Shown in pieces: positions 28,001 through 44,492 of a stretch of DNA of 64,000 nt. Source of the stretch: Candidatus Phoenicimicrobium oleiphilum (GTDB lineage: Bacteria > Atribacterota > Phoenicimicrobiia > Phoenicimicrobiales > Phoenicimicrobiaceae); the NCBI GenBank assembly GCA_039638295.1, contig JBDIWJ010000005.1, forward strand, positions 416 through 64,415, written 5' to 3'. The notes under the pieces were generated by a model. That model saw only the letters and a program-made list of their open reading frames with translations. It was not told where the DNA came from and searched no databases. The first letter of the stretch is position 1, and each line of letters begins with the position of its first letter. Made by a program: the position numbers and the translations under genes.

Positions 28001-28729
28001 TCAATGTCCACAGAAACAATACTGTTCAAACCCTTTAAGATAGGCAATCCCGGCAATGGTAACGCCATAAAATATAATTGGCTTTTCTATTAAAAGTGAA
28101 GTTAAAGTATTATTAACTACTGAAGTACCAGTAGCTAAAATTACATCTGCCCAGGATAATATTTCTTTGGTATGGGCAGCATCCTCTATTAATACTCCAC
28201 ACTTTTTTTGACCCACATTATCTGGATCTAAGTCTACTACTCTAATTTCAAATTGAGCTGCTAAAACCTCCACCATAGCTGGCTGCATCCCGATAAAAGC
28301 TATACGGGGATTGCCAAATTGCTCTTTGATATAATCTACCAGGTGAGTGGCGCACTCTCTCGGTTCTTTATCTTTGCAGTGAACTGTTTTGGAAATATAA
28401 TTTAGGTATCGCAACACAGCATTTAAAGTAGCGATAAAAACTGCCCTTTTAAAATTATTATCCAGGGGCATAGTTAAAATTTCCCGTAAACTTCCGCTAT
28501 AATTCCCAGGCATATCGGTAAAGGCCTGGCCTAAACTCCCTTTAAAATCTGCTTGAAGCATTACTTCCTTCCCTTTTAATAGAGGAAAATCATCCCGTTC
28601 TGGTTTTCCGATAACTTCTTGAGGAGTTAATGTCCGGGCACTTACCACTTCTACCCTCGAAGAAATTAAATCTTTTTCTTTAATTAGATTAAAAAACCTT
28701 TCTTTTATTTCCTCATAAAAATCCGACAT
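28001..28729 (-). CDS. DUF4213/DUF364-like protein (putative heavy-metal chelation domain; Rossmann-like)
   Basis: 242 aa; family recollection only, typical neighbour of Mo/W-cofactor genes. Confidence 0.4.
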   Translation of the reverse strand: MSDFYEEIKERFFNLIKEKDLISSRVEVVSARTLTPQEVIGKPERDDFPLLKGKEVMLQADFKGSLGQAFTDMPGNYSGSLREILTMPLDNNFKRAVFIATLNAVLRYLNYISKTVHCKDKEPRECATHLVDYIKEQFGNPRIAFIGMQPAMVEVLAAQFEIRVVDLDPDNVGQKKCGVLIEDAAHTKEILSWADVILATGTSVVNNTLTSLLIEKPIIFYGVTIAGIAYLKGFEQYCFCGH

Positions 28730-28767
28730 CTTAATCTTAACCTCCTTTTCCCCTTTTATATTTACTT

Positions 28768-29832
28768 TTAACCAAACTCGTCCATCTTTACTCTTGTTGA
28801 CTTTGTTAAGATATCAAAACAGAAAAAACATCGAGGGTAACGACAAGCTTCGCAATTTAAACAAAATCCTCCCTCTCCCATCTTTATAAAATCCTCTTTG
28901 CTTAGAATTTCCCCTGTAAAAATTCGGGGTAGTATCACATCTAAAATAGTAGTCCTATAATACATAGCACAACCAGGAACTCCTAACAAAACAGTATCCC
29001 CCAGATAAGCCATCATAAACATATTCCCAGGTTGAACTGGCACTCCATAAGTTACTACTTTAGCTCCACTCCTTCTTATCGCCCCGGGAGTAAGGTCATC
29101 AGGGTCTACGGACATCCCTCCAGTTAGTATTATTAAATCAGCCCCCTTTTGTTTATAATGCAAAATTTCCCTTTTAATCTCTTCTATATCATCGGGACAA
29201 AAAGCTTGACCTAGATAATGGACATGAAAAAATTCTAATTTTTTTCTCATTACCGGCCCAAATTTATCCTGAATCCTTTTTTTATATATTTCATTACCGG
29301 TAGTTATTAGAGCAACTTTTAATTTTTTATATTTTTTAATTTCAAAGACCTTCCCTTTTTTCTGACATAAATCTTCCATCTGAATTAGATATTTCTCTTT
29401 AGTAGTAAGAGGAATAATCCGAACACCAGCTAACTTTTGACCTCGTTCTACAATAAAATTCTGAGGGAGAGAAGCTATGGAGATACCTTTAATAGAGTTT
29501 ATTTGGTATAAAAGGGTAGAGTTAATCTTTAGCAACCCTCTCTCTTTTGCTTTTAAGATAGATTTCCCTTCCTGGGGTTCATCATAATTTATATTTTCCC
29601 CTGAGACTGCCCGCGCTATACGGAGAGCAGCTTCATCTTCATGAATTTCCCCGGCTTTCGGTTCCCATACATATATCTGTTCTTTCCCTAATTCCAATAA
29701 TTTTTCTATATCTTCTTTCTGGATAATATGTCCCTTCTTAAAAGCCCTCCCTTTAAATTTTCCCGGGATAATTTGGGTAATATCGTGACACAAAATCATC
29801 CCTATTGCTTTTTCAACAGGTATCTTTTTCAT
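28768..29832 (-). CDS. MoeA/MogA-like molybdopterin-binding (MoCF-biosynthesis) domain protein with C-terminal Cys cluster
   Basis: VALITTGNEI ... LTGGMSVDPDDLT MoCF_biosynth motifs; C-terminal CLNCEACRYPRCFFC. Confidence 0.5.
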   Translation of the reverse strand: MKKIPVEKAIGMILCHDITQIIPGKFKGRAFKKGHIIQKEDIEKLLELGKEQIYVWEPKAGEIHEDEAALRIARAVSGENINYDEPQEGKSILKAKERGLLKINSTLLYQINSIKGISIASLPQNFIVERGQKLAGVRIIPLTTKEKYLIQMEDLCQKKGKVFEIKKYKKLKVALITTGNEIYKKRIQDKFGPVMRKKLEFFHVHYLGQAFCPDDIEEIKREILHYKQKGADLIILTGGMSVDPDDLTPGAIRRSGAKVVTYGVPVQPGNMFMMAYLGDTVLLGVPGCAMYYRTTILDVILPRIFTGEILSKEDFIKMGEGGFCLNCEACRYPRCFFCFDILTKSTRVKMDEFG

Positions 29833-30068
29833 AATATTTAAAGTTACACCCCCACTTTAATCATCTCCCTTAGGGGAAGAGAAATATAGAGCTTATCCTC
29901 TCCCTCAAGGAGAAAATTTAAAAAATATTCTCAGTGGGCACGATTCATCGTGCCCCTACATTACCATTTTGCTTAATTTTTGGGTTACAATCATATTATT
30001 TATTATTCATCTTAAAAGATTCAGTAATATTATACTTTTATTAGTATAACGCAAATCAAATAAAAAGT

Positions 30069-30425
30069 TTAATCTTCTTCCTTAAATTCTTTAAATGTTT
30101 CCTGATATAGTGAGATCAAACATTGGTCAGCTTTCTTGCGAAATATCTCAAATTTCATCATCAGCTCTCTGGCTTTATCGGTAATTTCTGATCCTCCTCC
30201 TCTTTTCCCTCCAACACTTCTTTTTAATAGATTAAATCCTAATCTTTTTTCCAAATCTTTCATTAAGTTCCAGGCCTGGGAGTAAGACATATTTATTTCC
30301 TCTGCAGCCTGTCTTAAAGAACCCGTCCTCTCTACCCGATGAAGAATATCCAGGGGGCCATCACCAAAGACTTTCTCTCCATTTTTTTCCAGCCAAATTT
30401 TATATCTTAATTTCAATGTCCTCAC
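30069..30425 (-). CDS. ModE-N-terminal-like winged-helix regulator (MOP-less, 118 aa)
   Basis: GSLRQAAEEINMSYSQAWNLMKDLEKRLG resembles the ModE HTH; short protein lacking MOP domains. Confidence 0.5.
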   Translation of the reverse strand: MRTLKLRYKIWLEKNGEKVFGDGPLDILHRVERTGSLRQAAEEINMSYSQAWNLMKDLEKRLGFNLLKRSVGGKRGGGSEITDKARELMMKFEIFRKKADQCLISLYQETFKEFKEED

Positions 30426-30714
30426 TTCCTATAGACATATTCTTTCGTCCCATCAAGTCTCGTTCGCAACTAAACGGGCGTATGCAATACGCCCCTACTT
30501 CTGGATTCTGGCTACTGACTTCTATTTCTTTCATTCTTTACTATATACTAATTATCTTATCCGCTATAGTATATACTAATGACTATTCACTATTCGCTAA
30601 TGACTAAATTGACGGGGCAAATATCTAACCGGTAAACTACTATGTAAGCCAATTGGTAAATTGGTAGATTGGCGAATTGGTCAATTTATTTTTCTTTTTT
30701 CGATTCGAAAGTAA

Positions 30715-30939
30715 TTATATTCTATAAATATTTTCATATTCAACTTTCCCATCTTGTAGAATTTTTTCTATCTTTGACTTATCTTCATTATTAAACCGTA
30801 AACAGATACCACAATCAGAACTTAAGTGTCGAGGAACCGGAATGAGTTTTATTTTTAAATTTTCTTTTTTGGTTAAACTTTCCGCTCTTATCGCAGCACT
30901 GTTAGAATAAAATATTACCACACTAAAATTATCCTTCAT
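30715..30939 (-). CDS. DUF3343 family small protein (putative Se/S carrier-like)
   Basis: 74 aa with conserved Cys in SSDCGICL context; sits next to EF2568-type cysteine desulfurase. Confidence 0.5.
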   Translation of the reverse strand: MKDNFSVVIFYSNSAAIRAESLTKKENLKIKLIPVPRHLSSDCGICLRFNNEDKSKIEKILQDGKVEYENIYRI

Positions 30940-30968
30940 TAGTAAAAACTCCTTATCACTTATACACC

Positions 30969-32120
30969 TTATACACGCTGAGCAATTTTTCTTACAGCTA
31001 AAATTGTCTTTTCCACTTCCTCGAAAGTATTAAACCAGCTCAAACTAAAACGAATCGTACCAGTAGGAAAAGTCCCGATAGTTTTATGGGCAGCCGGAGC
31101 ACAATGCAGGCCAACTCGAGACATAATATTATATTCCTCATCAAGTCTTAATCCTACCTCTGAAGGTAACTGGTCTTTAATATTAAAAGAAACTACTGCC
31201 ACCCTATCTTTCACCTGGTCTTCTCCATAAACTATAACTCCAGGAATTTCTTTTAGACCCTCAATTAACTTTTGTGTCAGCTCAAGTTCGTATTGGTGAA
31301 TTTTGTCAATCCCTTTTTTAAGGACAAAACGCACACCCTCTTTTAATCCGATTAGACCTACTATATTGGGAGTTCCACTCTCGTAGATATCAGGCAAAAA
31401 ATCTGGCTGTTCCTCTGACTCAGACCGACTACCAGTTCCTCCAAATTTTAAAGGTTTTAATTTTTTAATATCCACTCTTTCCCCAACTACCAACCCTCCC
31501 GTTCCTGTGGGTCCAAAAAGTGCTTTGTGTCCGGTAAAAGCTAAAAGGTCGAGGTTATCCTTTCTAATATCCAAAGGATAACAACCAGCAGTCTGGGCAG
31601 CATCTACTAAAAAAAGAATACTATGTTTTCTGGCAATTTCTCCTACTTCAGCAATAGGCAATAAAGTACCGATAACATTCGAACTATGATTTAATACAAT
31701 TAATTTTGTATTTTTTTTAATCGATTTCTTTATATCAACAGGGTCAAGGTCTCCCTGAGGAGAGCAAGGAACAACTTTGACTTCAACCCCTCTTTTTTCT
31801 AATTCACGAAGAGGCCGCATAACTGAATTGTGTTCCATACTGCTGGTAATTACCTGGTCCTCAGGCTGCAATAACCCTTTTAAGACCAGATTTATTGCCT
31901 CGGTTACATTTAAAGTAAAGATAATTCGCAAGGGGTCGGTAACATTAAATAATTCCGCTAAACTTTCTCGCGTCTGATAAAGCAAGCGTCCGGCTTCTAT
32001 AGAAAGCCGATGACCAGAACGACCAGGACTTGCTCCCACCTTTTCTAAAAAATGTAACATTGCCTTGCCTACCTCTTTGGGTTTGGGATAAGAGGTAGCT
32101 GCATTATCCAGATAAATCAT
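30969..32120 (-). CDS. Class-V aminotransferase, cysteine desulfurase/selenocysteine lyase family (EF2568-like)
   Basis: MIYLDNAATSYPKP start and PLP-lysine region FTGHKALFGPTGTG; 383 aa. Confidence 0.8.
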   Translation of the reverse strand: MIYLDNAATSYPKPKEVGKAMLHFLEKVGASPGRSGHRLSIEAGRLLYQTRESLAELFNVTDPLRIIFTLNVTEAINLVLKGLLQPEDQVITSSMEHNSVMRPLRELEKRGVEVKVVPCSPQGDLDPVDIKKSIKKNTKLIVLNHSSNVIGTLLPIAEVGEIARKHSILFLVDAAQTAGCYPLDIRKDNLDLLAFTGHKALFGPTGTGGLVVGERVDIKKLKPLKFGGTGSRSESEEQPDFLPDIYESGTPNIVGLIGLKEGVRFVLKKGIDKIHQYELELTQKLIEGLKEIPGVIVYGEDQVKDRVAVVSFNIKDQLPSEVGLRLDEEYNIMSRVGLHCAPAAHKTIGTFPTGTIRFSLSWFNTFEEVEKTILAVRKIAQRV

Positions 32121-32146
32121 AATTTATCCTCTCAAATTTTTCTTTT

Positions 32147-32359
32147 CTACTTGGAAATAGTAAGCAAATATTCCCCATTTTCTTCTCTTACTACTACTTT
32201 CCAGCCTTCATTTACAGCCATCCGAGTAATATTATCTTTGGATGTTCCGGTATCTATTAGAACTTCTAAAATTCCTTTTTCCATCTCCAGTAGCTTATTC
32301 CTAACCGCAACTACCGGAAGCGGACAGGAAAGTCCTCGAACATCAATATTTTGATTCAT
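32147..32359 (-). CDS. yedF: TusA/SirA-like sulfur (selenium) transferase, YedF-like
   Basis: 70 aa with CPxP active-site motif (GLSCPLPV). Confidence 0.65.
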   Translation of the reverse strand: MNQNIDVRGLSCPLPVVAVRNKLLEMEKGILEVLIDTGTSKDNITRMAVNEGWKVVVREENGEYLLTISK

Positions 32360-33453
32360 TTCTTATCCCCCATTTGCTTTTTCCCTAAATCACTCATACT
32401 AAAACCAATAATAAAACAGACAATTAATCCTGTAATAACTGAAGCTGGTCCCCAAAGACCCGGACCTTTTGGAGAACTGGCAGTAGCAAAATTATGGGCG
32501 AAACCTGCGCCCACAACCATCCCTAAAACAAAAATAGCGGCATCGGCATCGCCTTCTCCGGAAAGGAAAAGTTGGCGACCCGGACAACCACCGGCTAAAG
32601 TAAAAGCCAATCCTGCTAAGACCATCCCTCCAAAATTCCATAATTGACTGTTATGAGCAATGGGTTGACCTTGAAACCCCGGATGGAATTGTTTTAAGGT
32701 TAGATTGCTCACCAAAGCAGCCAATAACAGACTAACAACTCCTGTCAAAAGATAAGTGTCTTTAATAAGGATTGCATCTCGAACAGCTGCTACCGTACAA
32801 AACCTGGTTCTTTGAGCCAAAAATCCTATCGCTATAGCTATTATCAGAGAAATAAATATAGGAGCATGTTGGGCTCCCGGCCCCTTACTGCTGAAAAAAA
32901 CCGCCCCTGAAGATAAGTGGGGCTGAAAAATAAGAAGCAAAAAAATCCCTAACATTATAACCGGCATAATCCAACCGACCAGCTGGTGAGTTCTCTGATT
33001 TCGACCTAAATTATAACCAGATTTAATAAAAAATATTCCTATCCAAATTCCTACTATTAACCCAGCCAAACCGAAAAGGGCATTACCATCCCCACCGGCC
33101 AATCGAAGTAATGTCCGCCATGGACAACCTAAAAAGACTAATGCACCTACCATAGATAAAAAACCTAAAACAAAACGCACCAGCGGAGCTGAACCAGCTC
33201 GTGGTTTAAACTCCTTAAATATTAAAGCGGCTAATAAAGAACCTAAAATAAAACCGATAATCTCGGGACGAATATATTGCGCTACTTCTGCTCTATGCAA
33301 ACCTAAAGCTCCAGCAATATCCCGTAGCATACAGGCAACACAGATACCCATATTAGGTGGATTCCCTAATTTTTGCAAATACGCTGCAGAAATGCCTATA
33401 AATATACCGGTAAAGATAATATTCTTTCGAGAGTTAAAAAAATTTTTCCACAT
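32356..33453 (-). CDS. yedE: YedE/YeeE-family membrane protein (sulfur/selenium-compound transport)
   Basis: 365 aa, two-repeat polytopic membrane protein with conserved Cys in each repeat (GICVAC..., FCTVAA...), overlaps yedF-like gene. Confidence 0.7.
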   Translation of the reverse strand: MWKNFFNSRKNIIFTGIFIGISAAYLQKLGNPPNMGICVACMLRDIAGALGLHRAEVAQYIRPEIIGFILGSLLAALIFKEFKPRAGSAPLVRFVLGFLSMVGALVFLGCPWRTLLRLAGGDGNALFGLAGLIVGIWIGIFFIKSGYNLGRNQRTHQLVGWIMPVIMLGIFLLLIFQPHLSSGAVFFSSKGPGAQHAPIFISLIIAIAIGFLAQRTRFCTVAAVRDAILIKDTYLLTGVVSLLLAALVSNLTLKQFHPGFQGQPIAHNSQLWNFGGMVLAGLAFTLAGGCPGRQLFLSGEGDADAAIFVLGMVVGAGFAHNFATASSPKGPGLWGPASVITGLIVCFIIGFSMSDLGKKQMGDKK

Positions 33454-33457: not shown

Positions 33458-34246
33458 TTAAATAATTCCTCTCCTTCCTCTTCTAACCTGAATAATCTCA
33501 GCTATAATACTTACTGCAATCTCTTCGGGAGTTTGAGCTCCAATATCTAATCCAATAGGAGCATAAACTTTTTCTAACTCTTTTTCGGCTATTCCCTTTT
33601 CTTTTAAATGTTGAAATACTGTCGCATTCTTCTTTCTACTTCCAATCATCCCGATATAGTGAGCCCTTGTTTTAATGACCCCAGTAAGAACTTCTTCATC
33701 TTTTAAATGACCCCGCGTTACAATAATGATATAAGTAGAGGGAGTAACCTCCAATAATTTAAGGGCTTCTTCTACTTCTTCAGTCAATATTCTATCGGCC
33801 TCTGGGAATCTATCCTGATTGGCAAATTCTTCCCTTTCATCAATTATGGTCACTTTAAATCCTAACATCTTGGCTAATTTAGAAACACAAACTGCAATAT
33901 GGCCTGCCCCAAAAATTAATACTTCTTCTTTTGGTTGAAGGATTTCTATAAAAACTTTCATCTCTCCACCACAGATAGCCCCTTCATCCAAGGCAGCTTG
34001 TTCCTTGGTTAGATGATAATTCAAAAGTTTTCCTTTCCCATCTTTTAAAGCCTGTTTTGCCTCTTCTATTACTCTGGCTTCGGTTATCCCTCCTCCTATA
34101 GTGCCAGCTACTAAACCATTTTTAGTTACTAGCATCTTCGCCCCTATTTCTCTCGGGGTGGAACCCTTAGTTTCAACCACAGTAGCCAAAGCGATTGTTT
34201 CACCTTTATCGATTCTTCCCAAAGCTTTTTTTAAAATCTCTATCAC
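33458..34246 (-). CDS. xdhC: XdhC/CoxI-family molybdenum-hydroxylase maturation factor
   Basis: N-terminal XdhC_CoxI (ALATVVETKGSTPR) plus C-terminal Rossmann (IFGAGHIA). Confidence 0.75.
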   Translation of the reverse strand: MIEILKKALGRIDKGETIALATVVETKGSTPREIGAKMLVTKNGLVAGTIGGGITEARVIEEAKQALKDGKGKLLNYHLTKEQAALDEGAICGGEMKVFIEILQPKEEVLIFGAGHIAVCVSKLAKMLGFKVTIIDEREEFANQDRFPEADRILTEEVEEALKLLEVTPSTYIIIVTRGHLKDEEVLTGVIKTRAHYIGMIGSRKKNATVFQHLKEKGIAEKELEKVYAPIGLDIGAQTPEEIAVSIIAEIIQVRRGRRGII

Positions 34247-34335: not shown

Positions 34336-35133
34336 TTATTTTTTATTCAAATACGCACAGATGGCCTCTAATACTGCTCCGCCTATAGAGCGGGCCTTAT
34401 CAGAAACGGTAAAACAGTATTCTCTTATCCCTCGGGGGTCAATATCTCCCACCTTCATCCCTTTGGTCACCCAGCTTTCAGGATAAATTAATCCCCGTAG
34501 AACGCCAGATATTTCTGTTTTTAAAGAAACTCCCTCCACTTCAGCAATCACTTCTCCTGCCTTAACTAAATCTCCAATTTTGCACAAAGGGAAGATTCTG
34601 CCTTGGGCGGGTGCTCGTAATAATCTTTTTTTTGATTCTCTTCCTACTTCCCCAGGCACACCAGTATCTGGCTCTGCTTGACCGTTATAAATAACTCGAC
34701 CTAAATTATGTCCACGCTTGGTCTCTATTACTACATCAACATCTTCTCCTGCAGTAAAACCTGGGCCCAAACCAATAACTAAGGGAGCCTGATTTATCTT
34801 TGTTCCCAAATTACGTTTGGCCATAATAGCATCTACTAAAACATCAGGAGAAAGTTTTTCAATACAATAACCTTCGGGGTCTATTAAAACCGGAATCTTC
34901 CACTGTTTAAAGGTATCTCTCGCCTTTTCCCAGGAAGGAATCAAAACAGCTTCTACCTCTTCTACAACTGCCTTGCCTTCATAAACTGCTCGAGCAAAGG
35001 AAACAGGTAGACGGATAACTGTAGGATGGTCTATCTCTAAAACTAACACAGAAAATCCAGCTCGAAAGAGTCTCACCGCCACACCGGTTGCTAAATCTCC
35101 TCCACCTCGGATAATTACTAATATATTATTCAT
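34336..35133 (-). CDS. YqeB-like selenium-dependent molybdenum hydroxylase system protein (C-terminal-domain type)
   Basis: 265 aa; assignment from recollection of the EF2563/YqeB family and its position between xdhC and ygfJ-like genes. Confidence 0.45.
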   Translation of the reverse strand: MNNILVIIRGGGDLATGVAVRLFRAGFSVLVLEIDHPTVIRLPVSFARAVYEGKAVVEEVEAVLIPSWEKARDTFKQWKIPVLIDPEGYCIEKLSPDVLVDAIMAKRNLGTKINQAPLVIGLGPGFTAGEDVDVVIETKRGHNLGRVIYNGQAEPDTGVPGEVGRESKKRLLRAPAQGRIFPLCKIGDLVKAGEVIAEVEGVSLKTEISGVLRGLIYPESWVTKGMKVGDIDPRGIREYCFTVSDKARSIGGAVLEAICAYLNKK

Positions 35134-35753
35134 CTTATTAAATCTTTCCCTTTTTTTTGAAAAGAGTCAAAGATATTTTTCATCCTCTCGTAATCTTCCT
35201 CCCGGTCAATATCTACTAATATAGATTCATCTGACATCTTAAGCTTTTTTATTCTCTCAGGATGAGCTTTAATCAAAACTTTCCCTCCCACGTCACCGGA
35301 AAGTTTCATCAACTCATCTTTCCAATAACCATCAAAGAGCACAGGATTTCCTTGTCTATCTTTATAAAAGGGAACTACTATCTCTTTTTTACCCGGAGTA
35401 AAAGCCATAATCATCTTATGTAATACAGAGGGATTAATCAAAGGTTGGTCCCCTAAAATTATAAAAAATCCCTCTACCCCTTCAGACGGTATCCGGGAAA
35501 GACCTTTTCGGATTGAACTGCTCATCCCAGATTTATATTCGGGATTAAGGACAATTTCCGCCCCCCAGTTATTTCCTATTTCAATAATTTCTTTATCTTC
35601 AGGGCGAACCACCAAAAAACATCTATCCAGGGGAGTTAACTTTACTGCTTGCAACACCCACTCTATTAACTGCTTATCACCCAAAGGAAGAGTTAATTTT
35701 ACTTTCCCCATCCTTTTACCTTCCCCTGCCGCTAAAATTATTCCGTAAATCAC
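35130..35753 (-). CDS. MobA-like NTP transferase (YgfJ/MocA-like molybdenum cofactor nucleotidyltransferase)
   Basis: GIILAAGEGKRMG nucleotidyltransferase motif, 207 aa. Confidence 0.7.
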   Translation of the reverse strand: MIYGIILAAGEGKRMGKVKLTLPLGDKQLIEWVLQAVKLTPLDRCFLVVRPEDKEIIEIGNNWGAEIVLNPEYKSGMSSSIRKGLSRIPSEGVEGFFIILGDQPLINPSVLHKMIMAFTPGKKEIVVPFYKDRQGNPVLFDGYWKDELMKLSGDVGGKVLIKAHPERIKKLKMSDESILVDIDREEDYERMKNIFDSFQKKGKDLIR

Positions 35754-36638: not shown

Positions 36639-38948
36639 CTACTTTTCAAAGTACTCTTTTTTTAAGGCTCGAATTATTTTTTCCGGGGTTGCGGGCAAAT
36701 TCTTAATTCTTACACCGATAGCATCATAAATAGCATTTAAAATAGCCGGGGCTATAATACTACAAGCAGGCTCGCCAATCCCTTTAGCACCATAAGGTCC
36801 TAATCCCCCGCCAGACTCTACTAAAATAGCCTTTACATCCGGCACATCTGCTGCAGTAGGAATAATATACTCGGAAAAAGAGGGAGTCATAGTAATCCCC
36901 TTTTCTATAATCACTTCTTCCATTAGGGCATACCCCATTCCATATATTGAACCACCTTCCATCTGACCTTCTACACTTAACGGGTTAATGGCTTTACCCA
37001 CATCATAGCAGGTAATAAGTTTTAAGATTTCTACCTGACCGGTTTCTGTATCTACCGCCACTTCTACCGCCTGGGCACCAAAAGTAAAATCAGGGAAGGT
37101 CATTCCTCTAATATTTGATAAATCAGGTACAATAGTAAATGGAGCATTAAACTGTACCTCACAGAATAATTCAATTCCGGCAGTATTACAAGCTTTTATT
37201 ACTTCAACTAAAGGCAAGTATTGTGATTGGTTATATTTTACAATTACTTTCTCTTCAATAATATCTAATTTATCTGGATTAACATTCAACAATTCTGCAG
37301 CTTTACTTATAATTCGTTTTCTTATCTTTCGAGCAGCTTTAAGGGTAGCATTTCCAGACATATAAGTTTGTCTGGTAGCAGTAGTAGTCCCGGCAAGTGG
37401 TGTTAGTGCTGTATCACTATAATATATTTTTATCTTAGACATAGGTATGCCTAATTCTTCAGCGACAATCTGACAAAGTAAAGAAACCTGTCCACCTCCT
37501 AAATCAGGAATCCCGGATCTGATTAATACACTTCCATCTGACTCTAACCTTACATAACATCGAGAAGAATCATGGAGAAAAGTCATTCGACCATAACTCA
37601 TTAATCCTATAGCTAATCCTCGACCGACCTTCCTATTCTTATCTTCACATTTAGCAAGTTCACCCAGTGCCTCCCAGGCTTTCTCGGCAACTTCGGGAAG
37701 AGCAACATAAGTTTTAAAGACCTGACCAGTTGTAGATAAAGATTTTCCCGTAGTGAGACAATTTCTACGTCTAATTTCTAAGGGGCTTATATTGAGCTTA
37801 TGAGCTAATTCATCCATTAAACTCTCATACACTACATTTGGCTGAGGAGCCCCAAACCCCCTATTTGCACTGGTAAATGTATTATTAGTTAATACACAAT
37901 AAGTTCTAACCTTAACATTGGGAATACAATAGGGACCAGCTGCATTAACTGTTGCATATAAATTCACCCAGGGACTTAAATAAGGATAAGCTCCGGCATC
38001 AGAAATTAATTCCGCATTTAAAGCAACCAGTTTACCATCTTTTTTAGCCCCTACCTTATATTTCATAACAAAAGGATGCCTTTTGCTATGACATAAAATA
38101 GATTCCTCGCGAGTATAGAATAACCTCACGGGCTTCTTGGTTTTCCAGGTAAGAAGAGCTAAATAAGCCTCCACGGTAATATCCTCTTTGCCACCAAAAC
38201 CTCCGCCCATCATCGTACCTATATAGCGAACCTTATTATGGGATAAGCCCAGAACATCAGCAACATCTCTAAAATGCTCGATTACCTGAGAGCCCACCCT
38301 GATATTAATTACTCCATAATCATCTATCCAGGCAATACCCCCCTCAGTTTCCAGATAAGCATGGTCAACAAAAGGCACTTTATAGGTGTCTTCAATTATT
38401 ATATCAGCTTCAGCAAACCCCTTTATAATATCTCCCTGACTACAGCCAAATTGTCCTATTATATTACTATTATTCTCTCCCACCAAATAGGCTCCAGGTT
38501 TCATAGCTTCAACTGGATCAAAGACTCCTGGAAGGGTTTCATAATTTACTTCAATTAAATCTAAAGCTTTCTCGGCAATTTCTTCTGTATCAGCAGCAAC
38601 CAGAGCTACTGCCTCTCCCATAAATCTAACTTTCTTATCTGCTAAAACCCGGTATAACCCCTCAAATCCCTTACCTACTTCCGAACTCTGGCCAAATCTG
38701 GTTACAGTTTCATTATGAGGAACATCTTTAGCAGTTAAAACAGCTCGCACCCCATTTAATTTCTCTGCTTTCGCGGTATTTATAGAAATAATCTTAGCAG
38801 CTGGATATTTGCTGCGAAGCACTTTGGCATATAACATCCCGGGTAAAGAAAAATCATCAGCATATTTAAGTTCCCCGGTTACCTTTGCCCAGGCATCATC
38901 TCTGGGTATTGGTTTACCTACTATTTTAAATTCAGACATAAGCTTCAC
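36639..38948 (-). CDS. Xanthine dehydrogenase-family molybdopterin-binding large subunit (enzyme 1)
   Basis: Ald_Xan_dh a/b-hammerhead N-terminus and Mo-binding domains (GGGFGGK), 769 aa. Confidence 0.85.
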   Translation of the reverse strand: MKLMSEFKIVGKPIPRDDAWAKVTGELKYADDFSLPGMLYAKVLRSKYPAAKIISINTAKAEKLNGVRAVLTAKDVPHNETVTRFGQSSEVGKGFEGLYRVLADKKVRFMGEAVALVAADTEEIAEKALDLIEVNYETLPGVFDPVEAMKPGAYLVGENNSNIIGQFGCSQGDIIKGFAEADIIIEDTYKVPFVDHAYLETEGGIAWIDDYGVINIRVGSQVIEHFRDVADVLGLSHNKVRYIGTMMGGGFGGKEDITVEAYLALLTWKTKKPVRLFYTREESILCHSKRHPFVMKYKVGAKKDGKLVALNAELISDAGAYPYLSPWVNLYATVNAAGPYCIPNVKVRTYCVLTNNTFTSANRGFGAPQPNVVYESLMDELAHKLNISPLEIRRRNCLTTGKSLSTTGQVFKTYVALPEVAEKAWEALGELAKCEDKNRKVGRGLAIGLMSYGRMTFLHDSSRCYVRLESDGSVLIRSGIPDLGGGQVSLLCQIVAEELGIPMSKIKIYYSDTALTPLAGTTTATRQTYMSGNATLKAARKIRKRIISKAAELLNVNPDKLDIIEEKVIVKYNQSQYLPLVEVIKACNTAGIELFCEVQFNAPFTIVPDLSNIRGMTFPDFTFGAQAVEVAVDTETGQVEILKLITCYDVGKAINPLSVEGQMEGGSIYGMGYALMEEVIIEKGITMTPSFSEYIIPTAADVPDVKAILVESGGGLGPYGAKGIGEPACSIIAPAILNAIYDAIGVRIKNLPATPEKIIRALKKEYFEK

Positions 38949-39032
38949 CTTCTTCCCGTTTTTCTAAAACTTGACATAGGACGGTTATATGTCGGGTTTT
39001 ATCCGCCCCGCATTTTGTTCTAATAGATTTTT

Positions 39033-39104
39033 GTCATTGCGAACGAAGTGATGAAGCAATCTCAATTCCGAGATTGCCACGCTCCCTACGGTCGTTCGCA
39101 ATGA
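39033..39104. repeat. Nested-palindrome intergenic element (outer 13-bp IR GTCATTGCGAACG/CGTTCGCAATGAC; inner hairpin GCAATCTC-AATTCC-GAGATTGC)
   Basis: Read directly; related to element at 27864-27960. Confidence 0.5.
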
Positions 39105-39158
39105 CTTTATAGACAGGCTCTATGAAAACAATGAACGCCTGTCCTACAGAATTTGAAT

Positions 39159-39635
39159 TTATTTTGATCTTTGATTTTCTACAGCTACTGCATAAATGGC
39201 ATCAACAATCTTTTTATATCCAGTACACCTGCATAGATTTCCAGATATCGCTTTTTTAATTTCCTCTCTATTAGGAATAGGATTTTGGTCAAGATAATTT
39301 TTTGCAGTAATTATCATTCCTGGTGTACAAAAGCCACATTGTATTGCCCCATAATTTACAAAACTTTTCTGGAGTTTCCTGCCAAGTTCAAATTTTTCCA
39401 TACCCTTAACAGTCCATACTTCTTTATGATTAGCTTGAAGAGCTAAGGTGATGCAGGATTTAACGGCTTTCTCATTTAGAATAACTGTGCAAGTACCACA
39501 CTCCCCTTTTTCACAGCCACATTTCACCTCGGTAAAACCATTTCGACGTAAAAATTTTAATAGAGATTCTTCTGCTTTGGCAGTCGTACTTATTTTCTCA
39601 CCATTTACGGTTAAATCTATTTTATATTCTTCCAT
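39159..39635 (-). CDS. (2Fe-2S)-binding small subunit of molybdenum hydroxylase 1
   Basis: CGCEKGECGTCTV plant-type and CGFCTPG second 2Fe-2S motifs, 158 aa. Confidence 0.85.
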   Translation of the reverse strand: MEEYKIDLTVNGEKISTTAKAEESLLKFLRRNGFTEVKCGCEKGECGTCTVILNEKAVKSCITLALQANHKEVWTVKGMEKFELGRKLQKSFVNYGAIQCGFCTPGMIITAKNYLDQNPIPNREEIKKAISGNLCRCTGYKKIVDAIYAVAVENQRSK

Positions 39636-39755
39636 CTACACTCTCCTTTTTAGTAAGTAATAAGTAATGGGCGATGAGTGATAAGTAATTAGTAACAAGT
39701 AATAAGTTATATGCAATTCGTGTATCGACTAATTGGTTAATTATTTTCTCTCCTA

Positions 39756-40631
39756 TTAATTGGTAAATTGGTGAATCGATGAATCGGCTAATTTTTTAAA
39801 GGCCCGTTTGAATAAGAGCCCGGAGATATATCGGCGATATTCTTCAGATGCTCGAATATCACTAATAGGTTTAACTTCTTCGCGCACTCTATCTATAGCC
39901 TCTTCAACCAATTTATCATTTATTTCTTTATTTTTTAAAAAACTCTCTGCACCAGTCAATCTTACGGGCGTAGGAGCTACAGAGCCAGCAGCAATCCGAA
40001 TTTGATTAATTTTATTTTGTCTAACTTCTAAATTTACTGCTACCGTTGCAATGGAAATAGCCATCGCTTTCCTCTGTCCTATTTTAATAAAATAGCCATT
40101 TTTATTTACATCACTTTGTTCAAATTCGATTCCCACAATCATTTCATCATCCTGCAAGATTGTTTCACCTGGGCCCACAAAAAAATCTTTTAGCTTAACT
40201 TCTCTCTTATCTCTAGTGCTCTCTATTTTTATAAGAGCATCAAGAGTTAAAAGTGGTATGGCTATATCAGCTGCAGGTGAAGCAGTTACTAAATTTCCAC
40301 CTATAGTGGCAGTGTTCCTTACCAGTGGGTCAGCAAATTCTTGGGCAGCTTGGGTTAATACCTTATACTCTTTTGATGTAATATCTGAATAAATCAATTC
40401 ATTAATAGTAGTGAGGGGACCTAAGAATATTTTATCTTCTTTTTGGTAAATACCCTTTAATTGTTCGATATTAGTAATATCTATTAAAACCTTAGCTTTT
40501 ATTTCTTTATCCCTTATATTGGGTAAAACATTGGAACAACCTGCAACTATACAAGCATTAGACTTCTCTTTTTGTAAAATTTCTAAAACTTCATCTTTTG
40601 TCTTAGGAGAAATATATTTAAATAGGCTCAT
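39756..40631 (-). CDS. FAD-binding (CO-dehydrogenase-flavoprotein-like) medium subunit of molybdenum hydroxylase 1
   Basis: FAD_binding_5 N-terminus (AGCSNVLP) plus CO_deh_flav_C, 291 aa. Confidence 0.8.
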   Translation of the reverse strand: MSLFKYISPKTKDEVLEILQKEKSNACIVAGCSNVLPNIRDKEIKAKVLIDITNIEQLKGIYQKEDKIFLGPLTTINELIYSDITSKEYKVLTQAAQEFADPLVRNTATIGGNLVTASPAADIAIPLLTLDALIKIESTRDKREVKLKDFFVGPGETILQDDEMIVGIEFEQSDVNKNGYFIKIGQRKAMAISIATVAVNLEVRQNKINQIRIAAGSVAPTPVRLTGAESFLKNKEINDKLVEEAIDRVREEVKPISDIRASEEYRRYISGLLFKRAFKKLADSSIHQFTN

Positions 40632-40726: not shown

Positions 40727-41203
40727 CTAATCGCTTTTTTGTTCTGCTACGCAAGACTTAATCGCCTTTACTATTTGCACATATCCGGTACAACGACAAA
40801 GATTTCCTCTCATATAATCCCTGATCTCGTTTTCGGTAGCATTAGGATTTTCTTTTAATAATGCCGTGGCAGTTAATATCATTCCCGGCGTACAAAAACC
40901 ACATTGCACAGCTCCATTCTCTAAAAACGCTTTCTGCACGGGATGTAGTTCATCACCCTTTGCCAGTCCTTCAATAGTGGTAATTTCTTTACCATTAACA
41001 GTTACCGCTAAAGTAAGACAAGATAAAACTGGTTCACCATCCAACAAAACGGTACAGGCTCCACATTCCCCAATACCACAACCATATTTACTCCCGGTTA
41101 GATATAAATCATTTCTTATTATATTAATTAAAAGGTCATTTGGTTTTACAAAAATCCTTCTCTTTTTACCATTAACGATAAACTCTATCTCTATTTTTTT
41201 CAT
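40727..41203 (-). CDS. (2Fe-2S)-binding small subunit of molybdenum hydroxylase 2
   Basis: CGIGECGACTV and CGFCTPG motifs, 158 aa. Confidence 0.85.
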   Translation of the reverse strand: MKKIEIEFIVNGKKRRIFVKPNDLLINIIRNDLYLTGSKYGCGIGECGACTVLLDGEPVLSCLTLAVTVNGKEITTIEGLAKGDELHPVQKAFLENGAVQCGFCTPGMILTATALLKENPNATENEIRDYMRGNLCRCTGYVQIVKAIKSCVAEQKSD

Positions 41204-41206
41204 ACC

Positions 41207-42106
41207 TTACAACTCACCTCCAGCTCTACCCCAGGCAAGTTTAAGGGCGTCTTCTGTCATTACCCGAGCTAGCTCAGTTCTATACTCAGCAGTAGAGCGA
41301 ATATCATCGATAGGTTTAATCACCTCTGAGGCTTTCTTCGCAGTTTTGATAATGAGATCATTGTTTATTACTTGCCCTCTTAAGAGCTCTTCTGCCTTTT
41401 TAGCCCGAACAGCTTTAATAAAAACTGAACCGAGTACTATTCGGCAATCTTTGCAGATCTCTCCTTCTCTTTTCAGGCAGACAGCTAAATTTATCTTGGC
41501 AATATCAGCTTTTACTCGACCTTTTTTTAAAAAAGCACCACCTGAATTTTTAGATATTTCAGGGATAATCACCTGGGTAAGCAGCTCGTCTCTCTTGATA
41601 ATAGTTTTCCCTACTCCAGTTATAAAATCTTCTACCAGAACTGTGCGTTCCCCCCTCTTACTGACCAATTTTAATTTTGCCTCATAGGCAATTAAGGGCG
41701 GAATAGTATCACCGGCTGGAGATGCATTGCAAATATTACCAGGCATTGTAGCCATATTTCTTATAGCAATTGCTGCCATAGACTTAATGCTTTCATATAA
41801 GGCAGGGTATTTTTCTCTGACTTTTTCTATCTTTTCAATGTGGGATAAAGGAACAGCTGCTCCTATCCTTAATCCCGCATCTGTATCAATAAATTTAAGT
41901 TCAGGAATTTCTTTTATACTTATCAGATAATCAGCATCAAGACCAATAGTCTTCATCTTAACTAAAAGGTCAGTACCCCCGGCTAATATCCTGGTATTCT
42001 TATCTTGATATCTATAAAGCAAGTCCAGGGCTCCAGCTAAAGTTTTAGGAGCAAAATATTCAAATTCTTGGGTTAAAATCTTGGTATTGTTAGTCAACCT
42101 TATCAC
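41207..42106 (-). CDS. FAD-binding medium subunit of molybdenum hydroxylase 2
   Basis: FAD_binding_5/CO_deh_flav_C architecture, 299 aa. Confidence 0.8.
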   Translation of the reverse strand: MIRLTNNTKILTQEFEYFAPKTLAGALDLLYRYQDKNTRILAGGTDLLVKMKTIGLDADYLISIKEIPELKFIDTDAGLRIGAAVPLSHIEKIEKVREKYPALYESIKSMAAIAIRNMATMPGNICNASPAGDTIPPLIAYEAKLKLVSKRGERTVLVEDFITGVGKTIIKRDELLTQVIIPEISKNSGGAFLKKGRVKADIAKINLAVCLKREGEICKDCRIVLGSVFIKAVRAKKAEELLRGQVINNDLIIKTAKKASEVIKPIDDIRSTAEYRTELARVMTEDALKLAWGRAGGEL

Positions 42107-44492
42107 CTACCCTTCTCCGACTTTCTTTTTCTTCTTCTTCCTTTCTTTTAAGAGCTTTCAGAACTTTTTCTGGAGTAATAGGCAGGTCATAAAATCTTAT
42201 CCCTATGGCATTATAAATCGCGTTAGCTACGGCAGAGCCTACAGAACTCAAAGCTGCTTCTCCTATCCCCTTTGCTCCAAATGGACCGGTAGGTTCATAA
42301 GTATGAGCAGAACGTACAATAATATTGTCTACTTTGGGCATCTCTACAGTAGTCGGAATCTTATAATCAGTTATCAACCCGTTACATTCTAATCCACCAC
42401 TATTTAAATCATATTTGGTCTCTTCTAAAAGACTGAATCCCAGTCCCCTACTAAAAGCACCAATTATTTGCCCTTCCCATAAATCAGGGTTGATGATAGT
42501 TCCTGAATCACCCATAATTACTGCTCTGGGGACTTTAACTTCTCCTGTTTTCGTATTTACTTCCACCTCCACAAAGTGGGTGATAAAACAGGGAGGACAA
42601 TTTTTCTGTCTTAGGGTAGATGTATAAGCGATAGCCCCCCAACTGGTAATATGGGCATGTTCTGCTATTTCTCCCAAGGTCATATAATTCTCGGGAATTT
42701 CTCGAGGGTAAATTACTGCCTGACCAAGCTTTTTATTACAGGCTAATTTTAAATTTTCCGGTAAATCTTTGAAAAGAGTCGCAGCGTAATTTAAAAGCAT
42801 CTCTTTGACTTTTTCAGCCACAAATTTTACAGCTCCACATCCGCAATATACCCCGCGAGTGGCATGAGTATTGACGTCAAAGACTGTGGTACGAGTATCT
42901 ACCTCATTATAAATACCAACTTTCTCATACGGTACCTTTAAAACTTCAGCCACCACTTTAGCTACGGCATCCCAGGTACCTCCCCCATGATCCATTAAGG
43001 CAGTCAATACATCTACTGAACCATCTTCATTAATTTTAATGGTTGCCCCTGAATAATCAATTACCTCACCAGGATTAGGACCACCAGTACCGGAAGTATG
43101 AAACCCTCTGGCTACGCCGATACCTCTCCTTAACTCTCCCTTCTTTTTAGAAGGGGGAGTTCTCTTCTCCCATTCAGCAAGTTTTGCTCCTTCAATCAAC
43201 ATCTCTTCCACTCCGCAACTCCTGATAATGGATCTTACTGTCGGACCCTGACCCCAAAATTCATCCCCTTTTCCTACATAATTTTTAAGACGAAGTTCAA
43301 TGGGATCTATATCCAATTTTTCAGCCAAAATATCCATTAAACTCTCTACTGCAAAATTTATCTGAGGATTTCCATATCCTTGCATTGCACAAGTAGGTAC
43401 TTTATTGGTATAGACAGCAGTTCCTTCATATTTTATGTTTTTCCACTTATAGAGAGAGGCGAACCATCCAGCCACACAACCTAAATAAGGATAAGCTTGA
43501 ATATTATGACCACCAATCTCCACCCAGACCCGACAGTGGGCAGCAGTTAATGTCCCATCTTTCTTAGCGCCGATTTTCAATATAGTTTTTAGAGGATATT
43601 TGGAATGATCGTAAATATCATCCTCTCTGGTAGATACCAATTTTACCGGTCTTTTTGCTTTTAAAGCTAAAGCAACACATATTGGAGTAATAGAATTCAT
43701 CTGGATACTTGAGCCAAAAGAACCGCCCAAAGTAATTCTCTTAACATTCACTTTATTTAAAGGAATATTAAAAATGTTTCCCAGGAGAATACGGACATTA
43801 TGAATCCCTTGAGAAGTTGTCCAGACGGTTATTCCTCCATCTGCTTCAGGGACACATACTGCAGACTTTGTCTCTAATTGCATATGATAAATTCTTTGAG
43901 TGTTAAAGGTTCTCTCTACAACTACCTCTGCCTCTTTAAAACCTTTATCAATATCGCCAACATCGATATTCCTCTCACAAGCTATATTATTCTTAATATC
44001 TACTTTTTCTTCACCTAAGTACACACAATCATATATGGAAGGTGCATCATCTTTTATAGCCTCATCAAGATCTATTAGTGGCTTCCATTTTTTACCCCAT
44101 TCTATTTTTATCTTTTTGAGGGCTGCAAATGCCTCTTCCTCTGTTTCAGCAGCACAGGCAGCAATAGCCTCTCCTATATGACGAACTTTATCTTTGGGTA
44201 AGACTGTTCTATCTCGATAGGTCTTTTCTGGTATGCTAACTATCCGCTCATTATATAAATAATCAGGGACATCATCAGGACCGATGCATATTGCCCCCAT
44301 CTTTTCTGCTTCTGTATAATCAATCTTTTTAATCTCGGCATGAGGGTAAGGGCTACACAGAACTACTGCGTATAGCTGACCAGGAATATTTATATCGGAA
44401 GAATACAACTCTTTGCCGGTTACTTTACCAATATTCTTTATGTCGAACTGTTTTCCAATAAATTCATATTGCTGTTTTTCCAATAAGATCAC
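42090..44492 (-). CDS. Xanthine dehydrogenase-family molybdopterin-binding large subunit (enzyme 2)
   Basis: 800 aa, aldehyde oxidase/xanthine DH Mo-binding domains, overlaps medium subunit gene. Confidence 0.85.
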   Translation of the reverse strand: MILLEKQQYEFIGKQFDIKNIGKVTGKELYSSDINIPGQLYAVVLCSPYPHAEIKKIDYTEAEKMGAICIGPDDVPDYLYNERIVSIPEKTYRDRTVLPKDKVRHIGEAIAACAAETEEEAFAALKKIKIEWGKKWKPLIDLDEAIKDDAPSIYDCVYLGEEKVDIKNNIACERNIDVGDIDKGFKEAEVVVERTFNTQRIYHMQLETKSAVCVPEADGGITVWTTSQGIHNVRILLGNIFNIPLNKVNVKRITLGGSFGSSIQMNSITPICVALALKAKRPVKLVSTREDDIYDHSKYPLKTILKIGAKKDGTLTAAHCRVWVEIGGHNIQAYPYLGCVAGWFASLYKWKNIKYEGTAVYTNKVPTCAMQGYGNPQINFAVESLMDILAEKLDIDPIELRLKNYVGKGDEFWGQGPTVRSIIRSCGVEEMLIEGAKLAEWEKRTPPSKKKGELRRGIGVARGFHTSGTGGPNPGEVIDYSGATIKINEDGSVDVLTALMDHGGGTWDAVAKVVAEVLKVPYEKVGIYNEVDTRTTVFDVNTHATRGVYCGCGAVKFVAEKVKEMLLNYAATLFKDLPENLKLACNKKLGQAVIYPREIPENYMTLGEIAEHAHITSWGAIAYTSTLRQKNCPPCFITHFVEVEVNTKTGEVKVPRAVIMGDSGTIINPDLWEGQIIGAFSRGLGFSLLEETKYDLNSGGLECNGLITDYKIPTTVEMPKVDNIIVRSAHTYEPTGPFGAKGIGEAALSSVGSAVANAIYNAIGIRFYDLPITPEKVLKALKRKEEEEKESRRRVGDKVD

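Follow-up and report, generated by a model that had tools for sequence, protein, structure and literature searches.

Two molybdenum hydroxylases and their maturation genes

Within a 64-kb window of DNA from Candidatus Phoenicimicrobium oleiphilum (by which we mean the whole stretch of 64,000 nucleotides analysed, on contig JBDIWJ010000005.1), we see two enzymes of the xanthine dehydrogenase (XDH) family encoded next to the accessory genes of selenium-dependent molybdenum hydroxylases (SDMHs) and a candidate cassette for selenium supply. All window genes to which we give a function lie on the minus strand. Every open reading frame (ORF) named in a preliminary description of the region was found again at the same position and on that strand, and the core of that description—an SDMH accessory set, a selenium supply cassette and two XDH-family enzymes—agrees with both the profile scores and the conservation of gene order. 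Proteins were scored with NCBIfam and Pfam models, and scores are quoted below against the curated cut-offs (score vs cut-off); L1/M1/S1 and M2/S2/L2 denote the large, FAD and FeS subunits of hydroxylases 1 and 2, and three-digit labels (L009, L023 and so on) denote related loci.

Two full sets of subunits are present, as had been described for 36639–40631 and 40727–44492: L1-M1-S1 (44492–40727) and M2-S2-L2 (40631–36639). Hydroxylase 1 consists of the molybdopterin-binding large subunit L1 (42090–44492; 800 amino acids, aa), the FAD-binding subunit M1 (41207–42106; FAD_binding_5 and CO_deh_flav_C domains, with XdhB-like matches under cut-off) and the 2x[2Fe-2S] subunit S1 (40727–41203; Fer2 and Fer2_2). 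Hydroxylase 2 is made up of the FAD-binding M2 (39756–40631) and the 2x[2Fe-2S] subunit S2 (39159–39635), both assigned by profile and domain matches, together with the large subunit L2 (36639–38948; 769 aa). Neither set reaches a substrate-specific equivalog cut-off, with L1 and L2 each falling under every such model. The gap of 210 bases between S2 and L2 (38949–39158) is unusually long for an otherwise tight enzyme operon; the corresponding gap in L009 is ~130 bases.

Active-site columns, numbered by alignment to rat XDH, were read in 30 large subunits. At positions 802/880/912/914/1261 L1 has I/C/Q/Y/E; amongst its orthologs 802, 914 and 1261 are conserved, 880 is mostly Cys, and 912 is either Gln or Arg. 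The equivalent residues of L2 are E/Y/R/F/E, a Glu/Tyr/Arg/Phe/Glu set conserved in orthologs that are 58–89% identical and span seven phyla. A Se-XDH-like neighbour protein from Desulfosporosinus has Glu/Arg/Arg/Phe/Glu and thus keeps the canonical Glu802 + Arg880 pair. That pair is found in neither L1 nor L2, and both the XDH and PucD equivalogs score under cut-off, so assignment as a canonical xanthine dehydrogenase was rejected. Judged from these columns and scores, L1 and L2 look catalytically competent, neither of them as a canonical xanthine dehydrogenase, and we infer that they represent two distinct orthologous groups working as a pair.

The nearest matches for L1 in the PDB are the alpha subunit of 4-hydroxybenzoyl-CoA reductase (4-HBCR) and nicotinate dehydrogenase (NDH), whilst for L2 the scores for Eubacterium barkeri NdhL (301.6 bits) and NdhM (232.7 bits) together exceed that for 4-HBCR (402 bits). 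With the E. barkeri enzyme (PDB: 3HRD), a structurally defined Se-containing molybdenum hydroxylase, L2 shares the FAD-FeS-Mo gene order and the equivalents of the catalytic Glu, Arg912 and Phe914; it differs in being one fused 769-aa chain, in having Glu/Tyr rather than Leu/Arg in the rat Glu802/Arg880 columns, and in having no nicotinate-pathway genes nearby. An assignment as NDH was rejected on both equivalog cut-offs and active-site columns. The Thauera aromatica 4-HBCR (PDB: 1RM6) is the best single-chain PDB match of both large subunits, but its equivalogs lie far under cut-off and it too was rejected (TIGR03194: 542 and 407 vs 994; TIGR03195: 127 and 97 vs 404; TIGR03193: 147 and 181 vs 258); the FAD subunits, at 291 and 299 aa, are shorter than the HcrB profile (321 positions), which they match in two stretches only.

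The gene for YqeC (35750–36562) begins 76 bases past that of L2, physically linking the maturation genes to the XDH-family subunits. Its product is a P-loop protein with a GAGGKST motif (TIGR03172: 167.5 vs 73; PF19842: 133), and is followed by a MocA/YgfJ-like molybdenum cofactor cytidylyltransferase (35130–35753; NTP_transf_3: 121.9 vs 27), YqeB (34336–35133; TIGR03309: 370.6 vs 220) and an XdhC-family chaperone for the molybdenum cofactor (33458–34246), in which the Pfam domains XdhC_CoxI and XdhC_C (PF02625, PF13478) score well over cut-off. Profile checking therefore upholds the earlier calls for YqeB and YqeC, but leaves that for YgfJ borderline (TIGR03310: 174.2 vs 186.45); we have kept it because of its synteny and because YqeC and MocA are fused in Moorella, the fusions amongst relatives’ clusters also including YqeB-XdhC. 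XdhC is similarly a little short on its equivalogs (NF045664: 322.5 vs 350; TIGR02964: 151.6 vs 161.6). Gene spacing is tight, with mocA overlapping both yqeC and yqeB by 4 bases.

YqeB, YqeC and YgfJ were defined as SDMH markers by Haft and Self (2008, PMC2276186), who reported YqeB from selD-positive genomes only; YqeB and YqeC together have been described as marker genes of a ‘third selenium trait’. In the window this published pair is present with yqeC two genes from yqeB and both products over cut-off. Genetic work in Clostridioides difficile has found selD and yqeB to be needed for the use of xanthine and urate, and in Clostridium sporogenes purine degradation needs selD; as we read them, these published data support the roles proposed for both genes. 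By homology and gene context the locus would therefore be another example of the known SDMH trait, here in the Atribacterota (JS1). Our literature search found no paper tying this phylum to either SDMH or XDH.

The arrangement is not confined to one genome. L1 has orthologs, 51–89% identical, in Atribacterota, Moorella, Formimonas and also archaea; in a scan that took one genome per species those of 73–89% identity came from Atribacterota metagenome-assembled genomes (MAGs) only, with more distant ones in Aerophobetes, Caldisericota and Desulfurococcales. The window itself is contained in JGI metagenome contig Ga0181304_100043 (72,188 bases), its base 1 being base 395 of that record, and NCBI lists proteins 100% identical to window proteins as ‘Candidatus Atribacteria bacterium’, at least one of them belonging to MAG GCA_003513845.1. 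The order L1M1S1-M2S2L2-YqeC-MocA-YqeB-XdhC repeats across Atribacterota and in dozens of related contigs, for which reason we do not regard it as a product of chance. L1 and L2 occur together in Moorella humiferrea, M. glycerini, Anaeroselena agilis, Desulfosporosinus, Candidatus Formimonas warabiya, Caldisericota and a Chloroflexi MAG, as well as on a contig with an L1 protein that bears a deltaproteobacterial annotation; a metagenome scan added 80 further loci. The pair has YqeB, YqeC, MocA, XdhC and the MoCF-domain protein described below encoded beside it in Moorella, Anaeroselena, Desulfosporosinus and Formimonas.

The putative selenium cassette and the selD slot

Below xdhC lie four genes with likely roles in selenium handling. 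The first encodes a YedE-family putative selenium transporter (32356–33453), which scores 494 vs 200 on TIGR04112 and only 24–47 bits on the models for the thiosulfate transporter TsuA. Overlapping it by 4 bases is the gene for a TusA/SirA-like carrier of 70 aa (32147–32359; CPLP motif; PF01206: 64 vs 28.6). The two had been described as a YedE/YedF pair, of which YedE stands; published YedF has a SirA-like domain plus an additional DsrE-like domain, and a two-domain YedF was rejected here since the protein has the TusA domain alone and falls under both YedF models (TIGR03527: 53.8 vs 110; NF008242: 38.4 vs 79). Next come a pyridoxal phosphate-dependent cysteine desulfurase/selenocysteine lyase of the EF2568 family (30969–32120; TIGR01977: 497 vs 377) and a DUF3343 protein, a putative Se/S carrier (30715–30939; PF11823: 85 vs 25), both in agreement with the preliminary description. 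On the exception model for SclA (NF040779) the lyase scores 404 vs 525, and any specificity for selenium over sulfur is thus putative.

The absence of selD from the window had also been described: we see no match to a SelD profile among the window ORFs scanned and no SelD signature in the six-frame translation. To call the locus ‘complete’ was therefore too strong, as selD was not found on the contig. In the related loci, selD was likewise not found in 10-kb flanks (those of L033–L035 included), with one exception. Locus L023, from Atribacterota MAG CSMAG_2281 (L1 89% identical), carries a 347-residue ORF at 15378–16421 (plus strand) that scores as a bona fide SelD (TIGR00476: 364 vs 125; NF002098: 336 vs 299), indicating that the Atribacterota lineage to which the window belongs has selD. 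This gene sits between xdhC and the gene for a ModE-like regulator—precisely the slot that in the window holds the YedE-TusA-lyase-DUF3343 cassette. In the window, L009, L033, L034 and L035 the slot is occupied by YedE and TusA, then by lyase and DUF3343 where the locus reaches that far, and in L015, L017, L018 and L020 it is empty, with ~170 bases from xdhC to the ModE-like gene. One slot has thus received two distinct selenium-related inserts, and we take it from this that the flanking genes handle selenium.

Modules on either side

The island extends beyond the run flagged in the preliminary description, and on homology and context appears also to include modules at 24990–30425 and 18562–24784. 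The first begins with a regulator resembling the N-terminal helix-turn-helix part of ModE (30069–30425; TIGR00637: 64.7 vs 98.5; HTH_1: 44; no Mop/TOBE domain). Around this gene are the only larger gaps in a run otherwise marked by the 4-base overlaps noted above for yqeC-mocA-yqeB and yedE-tusA. In the 289-base gap between it and the DUF3343 gene there is an 8-bp GC-rich hairpin, GGGCGTATTGCATACGCCC, at 30476–30494 (minus strand) with no clear T-tract; it may mark a boundary between transcripts of the selenium cassette and of the molybdenum module, with the caveat that the scan that gave it does not overall exceed the shuffled level. The promoter scan returned 49 matches vs 52.5 in shuffled sequence and the terminator scan 15 vs 13.6, and operon boundaries were drawn from neither.

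The second gene of the module encodes a MoeA-like MoCF-domain protein with a Cys-rich tail (28768–29832; PF00994: 83.6; tail CLNCEACRYPRC), residues 2–304 of which align to the Pyrococcus horikoshii MoeA (PDB: 1uz5). The four-Cys motif of the tail, CxxCxxCxYPxC, is conserved as far as Moorella. After this motif the window protein has a 15-residue C-terminal extension, DILTKSTRVKMDEFG (28768–28815), that is missing in 5 of the 6 orthologs aligned; the ortholog in L018 has a short C-terminal extension. A DUF364 protein follows (28001–28729; PF04016: 41.5 vs 23), then an ATP-binding cassette (ABC) transporter (24990–27815) comprising a binding protein of the NMT1/SsuA type, a permease, and an ATPase with a ModC/WtpC-like C-terminus whose closest relatives are WtpC and ModC. 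In the PDB the binding protein has no more than distant matches, to binders of taurine, nitrate and bicarbonate, and we assign it no ligand. Since DUF364 proteins have been reported beside molybdate/tungstate uptake genes, and since the ATPase resembles WtpC and ModC, we read 24990–30425 as a module that probably serves uptake and handling of molybdenum or tungsten, the substrate of the transporter being an oxyanion of Mo or W, or possibly of Se. The ModE-like, MoCF and DUF364 genes had already been described, but belong with this transporter, which had been left out. In L033 and L035 the order runs ModE-like, MoCF, DUF364, binding protein, permease, ATPase, IclR, carbamate kinase and aspartate carbamoyltransferase; L034 has the same downstream order with some gene calls missing. 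A further pterin enzyme lies at 519–2684 (minus strand), a tungsten-type aldehyde:ferredoxin oxidoreductase with AFOR_N and AFOR_C domains, which could share the uptake module.

The second module opens with an IclR-family regulator identified by profile match (24005–24784), which is found also in the clusters of Formimonas, Anaeroselena and Desulfosporosinus. Below it are genes for a carbamate kinase (22964–23935; TIGR00746: 371.6 vs 358) and the catalytic chain of an aspartate carbamoyltransferase (ATCase; 22000–22923), which scores 379 vs 237 on TIGR00670 and 43–45 bits on the YgeW models. Its motifs STRTR, KGES, HPTQ, GDLKYGRTVHS, TRIQRER and HPLPR are all present, and we presume from the Escherichia coli enzyme that they serve binding of carbamoyl phosphate and aspartate (R167 and R229/Q231 included). 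PyrI is not adjacent to the ATCase either in the window or in the archaeal locus L025. A cyclic amidohydrolase comes next (20454–21836), with its metal ligands kept (DPHVH, K, H, H, D); in PDB comparisons it is nearer to L-hydantoinase (1gkr, 288 bits) and allantoinase (245) than to dihydroorotase (DHOase; 198), and the label ‘DHOase’ was dropped for it in favour of hydantoinase/allantoinase-like. The module closes with a GTP-dependent phosphoenolpyruvate carboxykinase (PEPCK; 18562–20400; NF003253: 639 vs 504), a gene that adjoins L1/L2 in Caldisericota and Formimonas as well.

It is the link between the hydroxylases and the carbamate kinase, ATCase and hydantoinase genes (20454–23935), missed in the preliminary description, that we consider the best functional clue. 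Neighbourhoods were counted in loci of at least 12 kb, the non-Atribacterota set comprising 20 loci with L1 50–70% identical: L2 is present in 15, ATCase in 14, carbamate kinase in 9 and a cyclic amidohydrolase in 15, and 17 have one or more of ATCase, carbamate kinase and amidohydrolase. On TIGR00670 the ATCases encoded in the window, in Formimonas and on the deltaproteobacterial contig reach 365–385 vs 237, which marks them as genuine, and all four ATCases inspected keep the aspartate motifs and most or all of those for carbamoyl phosphate. Genes suited to the disposal of aspartate lie nearby: Formimonas has an aspartase (687 vs 510 bits), one archaeal cluster has a class I/II aminotransferase, and PEPCK is found in the window, Caldisericota and Formimonas. 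In L117 and Desulfosporosinus an M20-family peptidase stands where ATCase and carbamate kinase would be expected; that of L117 scores as an N-carbamoyl-L-amino-acid amidohydrolase.

Upstream of L1, a block at 44545–54080 encodes an indolepyruvate-type 2-oxoacid:ferredoxin oxidoreductase (IOR; IORa/b), an ADP-forming acyl-CoA synthetase (alpha, 50283–51623; beta, 44545–45225) and a Liv-type ABC transporter (45255–50021). The block lies directly upstream of L1 in Atribacterota: of 32 loci that span 12 kb or more, 23 have acyl-CoA synthetase beta and 16 have IORa. The IOR genes are themselves immediately preceded, at 54172–58155 (minus strand), by genes for a D-aminopeptidase (Peptidase_M55) and for a polar amino-acid ABC transporter made up of two permeases, one ATPase and a binding protein of the SBP_bac_3 type, consistent with amino acids or peptides feeding the island.

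Elsewhere in the window, an Rfam scan of its entire length at the gathering threshold gave a lysine riboswitch (RF00168; 111.5 bits; 9179–9358, minus strand) as its sole match and found no Moco riboswitch. The riboswitch is upstream of a saccharopine-dehydrogenase-like gene (7613–8857) in a stretch, 6044–15146, that also holds a second such gene, a PrpD/MmgE-like gene, large and small subunits of homoaconitase type, a homoisocitrate/isocitrate-dehydrogenase-like gene and a class III aminotransferase, and which looks like a block for a lysine pathway of the aminoadipate type. An AtuA-like protein (452 aa) and a DUF4387 protein (109 aa), then an HDIG protein, are encoded at 15703–17424 (minus strand). 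At 60002–63141 (minus strand) there is an AbiEi/AbiEii toxin-antitoxin pair with an AAA_14/DUF4143 ATPase; a related contig has an rve-type integrase in this position, and we accordingly regard the region as variable. The contig just beyond the window (L030) encodes a MazE/ParE pair as well as SerRS, RtcB and archease.

A proposed route to aspartate and its rivals

Taken together, the genes favour—with moderate confidence on our part—an island for supply and maturation of a selenium cofactor, serving two molybdenum hydroxylases that would feed a route from an N-heterocycle to aspartate. In such a scheme uptake and sensing of molybdate or tungstate would fall to the ABC transporter, DUF364 protein and ModE-like regulator; the Cys-tailed MoeA-like protein would handle Mo-molybdopterin, MocA would add CMP to give the cytidine dinucleotide cofactor, and XdhC would hold it. 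Selenium would enter via YedE and/or be released from selenocysteine by the lyase, be relayed by the small carriers and be activated by a SelD encoded elsewhere, whereupon YqeB, aided by the P-loop protein YqeC, would set it as the labile Mo ligand before insertion of the cofactor into L1 and L2. The two hydroxylases would then oxidise the N-heterocycle to a cyclic ureide, to be opened by the hydantoinase-like amidohydrolase. As the carbamoyltransferase is an ATCase, we take the ring-opened intermediate to be N-carbamoyl-L-aspartate, from which ATCase in reverse would release aspartate and carbamoyl phosphate; carbamate kinase would make ATP from the latter, and aspartate could pass onward via oxaloacetate and PEPCK. 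The placing of L1/L2 beside amidohydrolase, ATCase and carbamate kinase would thus imply an undescribed fermentation of N-heterocycles through N-carbamoyl-aspartate; we found no description in the literature of a cluster combining XDH-family enzymes, ATCase and carbamate kinase.

The known SDMH loci of Enterococcus faecalis (EF2563-EF2570), E. coli (ygeV-ygfT) and C. difficile (PMC2276186; Johnstone and Self 2024, PMC11448449) are alike in having YqeB, YqeC and YgfJ/MocA beside XDH-family subunits, an EF2568-type lyase and SirA/TusA-type protein near, and carbamate kinase with a carbamoyltransferase in the wider region. The window differs from them in lacking selD at the locus, in the short TusA partner of YedE, in its built-in Mo/W uptake module, in having a true ATCase rather than the knotted YgeW, in the orthologous groups of its hydroxylases, and in its host phylum. 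A closer parallel in design is the 2,8-dioxopurine/urate pathway of C. sporogenes and E. coli (bioRxiv 10.1101/2025.04.24.650524), in which two SelD-dependent molybdenum hydroxylases, cyclic amidohydrolases, and a carbamoyltransferase with carbamate kinase lead to ATP; that this proven pathway is built in the same way supports the logic proposed here. It differs in that the window has ATCase for YgeW, in that YgeX, YgeY, SsnA, YgfK and HyuA were not found among the window ORFs scanned, in its products (diaminopropionate and pyruvate, as against the four-carbon aspartate we propose) and in that the window hydroxylases lack the xanthine-binding pair.

As to the entry substrate, our leading guess from the gene content is imidazole-4-acetate. 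The longest carbon chain in a purine is three carbons, which rejects purines as a source of aspartate; the natural five-carbon, two-nitrogen rings with an N-C-N arrangement are the orotate-type pyrimidine carboxylates and imidazole-4-acetate. The latter is favoured because exactly two of its C-H positions adjoin nitrogen, matching the two hydroxylases, because the window amidohydrolase is nearest to L-hydantoinase and allantoinase, and because the upstream IOR and acyl-CoA synthetase could convert an amino acid into an arylacetate. In Atribacterota it would come from histidine via these two enzymes, and elsewhere from histamine via an omega-aminotransferase; L2 and L1 would place a water oxygen on both ring carbons adjoining nitrogen to give L-hydantoin-5-acetate, and opening of that ring by the hydantoinase-like enzyme would yield N-carbamoyl-L-aspartate, with ATP to follow from reverse ATCase and carbamate kinase. 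Such an oxygen-independent route from imidazole-4-acetate to aspartate is a tentative proposal, in our estimation possible but on balance doubtful, and we would be equally hesitant in extending it to the counterparts in Moorella, Formimonas, Anaeroselena, Desulfosporosinus, Chloroflexi, Caldisericota, Aerophobetes and Desulfurococcales. An APC permease in L111 and L118, with a putrescine-type aminotransferase also in L118, echoes the aerobic Hin pathway from histamine via imidazole-4-acetate to aspartate in Pseudomonas putida (PMC8231116), which likewise has an APC permease and an aminotransferase and ends in aspartate then fumarate (compare the aspartase beside L1/L2 in Formimonas). Its enzymes are different, and the likeness is one of logic only. 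The aerobic route opens its ring with an O2-dependent monooxygenase, via formiminoaspartate.

Saying this, several features of the related clusters tell against imidazole-4-acetate and suggest an orotate-type pyrimidine carboxylate as the alternative ring. The counterpart amidohydrolase of Moorella is a true type-I DHOase, and because of this the window enzyme does not settle whether the ring is five- or six-membered. A class 1B dihydroorotate dehydrogenase (PyrK and PyrD) lies in or next to the L1/L2 island in M. glycerini (L039:1–1590; PyrD: 384 vs 269 on NF005574) and in the JS1 MAG RBG_19FT_COMBO_35_14 (L035:11712–13422), which an imidazole substrate would leave unexplained. The Chloroflexi cluster has a PreA-like reductase, one archaeal cluster a xanthine/uracil-family permease, and the clusters of Moorella and Chloroflexi PucR-type regulators. 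In our literature search neither an imidazole nor a pyrimidine-carboxylate route with such enzymes was found described, nor any anaerobic metabolism of imidazole-acetate or carboxymethylhydantoin.

The PucR-type regulators and the archaeal permease would equally suit ordinary anaerobic purine catabolism, with L1 and L2 as the purine hydroxylase and xanthine dehydrogenase known from Clostridium purinolyticum; ATCase, carbamate kinase and amidohydrolase would in that case be biosynthetic pyrimidine genes or unrelated neighbours. The characterised SDMHs listed in the literature consulted do act on purines, nicotinate hydroxylase excepted, an adenine deaminase adjoins one cluster, L2 keeps the equivalent of Glu802, and PyrK/PyrD stand beside ATCase in L035 and L039. 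We nevertheless find purine catabolism unlikely, and its corollary for the pyrimidine genes no less so: the Glu802 + Arg880 pair seen in the Se-XDH-like neighbour of Desulfosporosinus is in neither enzyme, every XDH and PucD equivalog is under cut-off, YgeW, YgeX, YgeY, SsnA and YgfK were not found among the window ORFs scanned, a three-carbon chain cannot yield aspartate, and adjacency to ATCase repeats in very distant lineages with differing gene orders. Far less probable still is a 4-HBCR-like role, in which the enzymes, instead of hydroxylating an N-heterocycle, would take as substrates aryl-CoA thioesters supplied by the neighbouring IOR and acyl-CoA synthetase in a fermentation of aromatic amino acids. 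The alpha subunit of 4-HBCR is the top single PDB match of both large subunits, and in Atribacterota IOR and the ADP-forming synthetase are directly upstream; yet TIGR03194, TIGR03195 and TIGR03193 are all far under cut-off, the M subunits are short for the HcrB profile, the summed NDH scores exceed that of 4-HBCR, and outside Atribacterota the clusters lack IOR and acyl-CoA synthetase but have ATCase, carbamate kinase and amidohydrolase.

A different objection concerns the element rather than the substrate, namely that lyase, TusA-like protein, DUF3343 protein and YedE-family transporter deliver sulfur, and that XdhC installs a cyanolysable sulfido ligand in enzymes of the conventional S-type; YqeB and YqeC would then belong to general cofactor maturation. 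The four ‘selenium’ families do have sulfur-handling relatives (SufS/NifS, TusA, YeeE/TsuA), DUF3343 is without a Se-specific subfamily, and some Atribacterota loci are without the cassette altogether. XdhC of Rhodobacter capsulatus cooperates with a NifS-type desulfurase, XdhC plus a NifS-like protein being a known route to the sulfido ligand, and we know of no sequence signature that tells Se-type from S-type molybdenum hydroxylases. To these points, which weigh against selenium, must be added the rejection of a two-domain YedF, the scores of MocA and XdhC slightly under their equivalog cut-offs, the finding that yqeC is dispensable in C. difficile, and two negative results: no YqeB or YqeC was found within 10 kb of the archaeal L1 orthologs, and no selD in the 7.8 kb of the 72-kb contig past the window. 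Weighing likewise against the proposed pathway, the genes for ATCase, carbamate kinase and amidohydrolase stand ~13–20 kb away from L1/L2, the Atribacterota hydroxylases being separated from them by the genes for maturation, selenium and Mo uptake, and with PyrK/PyrD beside the ATCase module in one Atribacterota relative (L035) these could be housekeeping pyrimidine genes; all our functional assignments, moreover, rest on homology and gene context. We still judge both parts of the sulfur explanation to be improbable, given that YedE scores 494 bits on its own model as against 24–47 on those for TsuA, that the lyase exceeds the EF2568-family cut-off, that YqeB has been reported only in selD-positive genomes, and that L023 has selD in exactly the slot of the cassette.

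The selenium cofactor of molybdenum hydroxylases is, to our knowledge, the least understood biological use of selenium, and we know of only a handful of SDMH enzymes and hosts, mostly purine-degrading Firmicutes and their relatives. With a selenium cofactor as our preferred reading, the island would extend the SDMH trait to Atribacterota, a phylum that is dominant in the subsurface but has scarcely been brought into culture. There, one chromosomal slot holds either selD or a transporter-lyase-carrier cassette, an alternation that is useful as natural evidence for selenium handling by the genes around it. The island also points to two widespread, uncharacterised hydroxylase families consistently tied to carbamate kinase and to an ATCase proposed to run in reverse; if true, this would be a new ATP-yielding fermentation of N-heterocycles, and one open to test, as the cluster is carried by the cultured M. 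humiferrea, M. glycerini and A. agilis and by the sequenced enrichment organism Candidatus Formimonas warabiya. Should the imidazole-4-acetate route in turn prove true, the Hin pathway would have an anaerobic counterpart, and nature would have put the SDMH-carbamoyltransferase-carbamate kinase design to use a second time.

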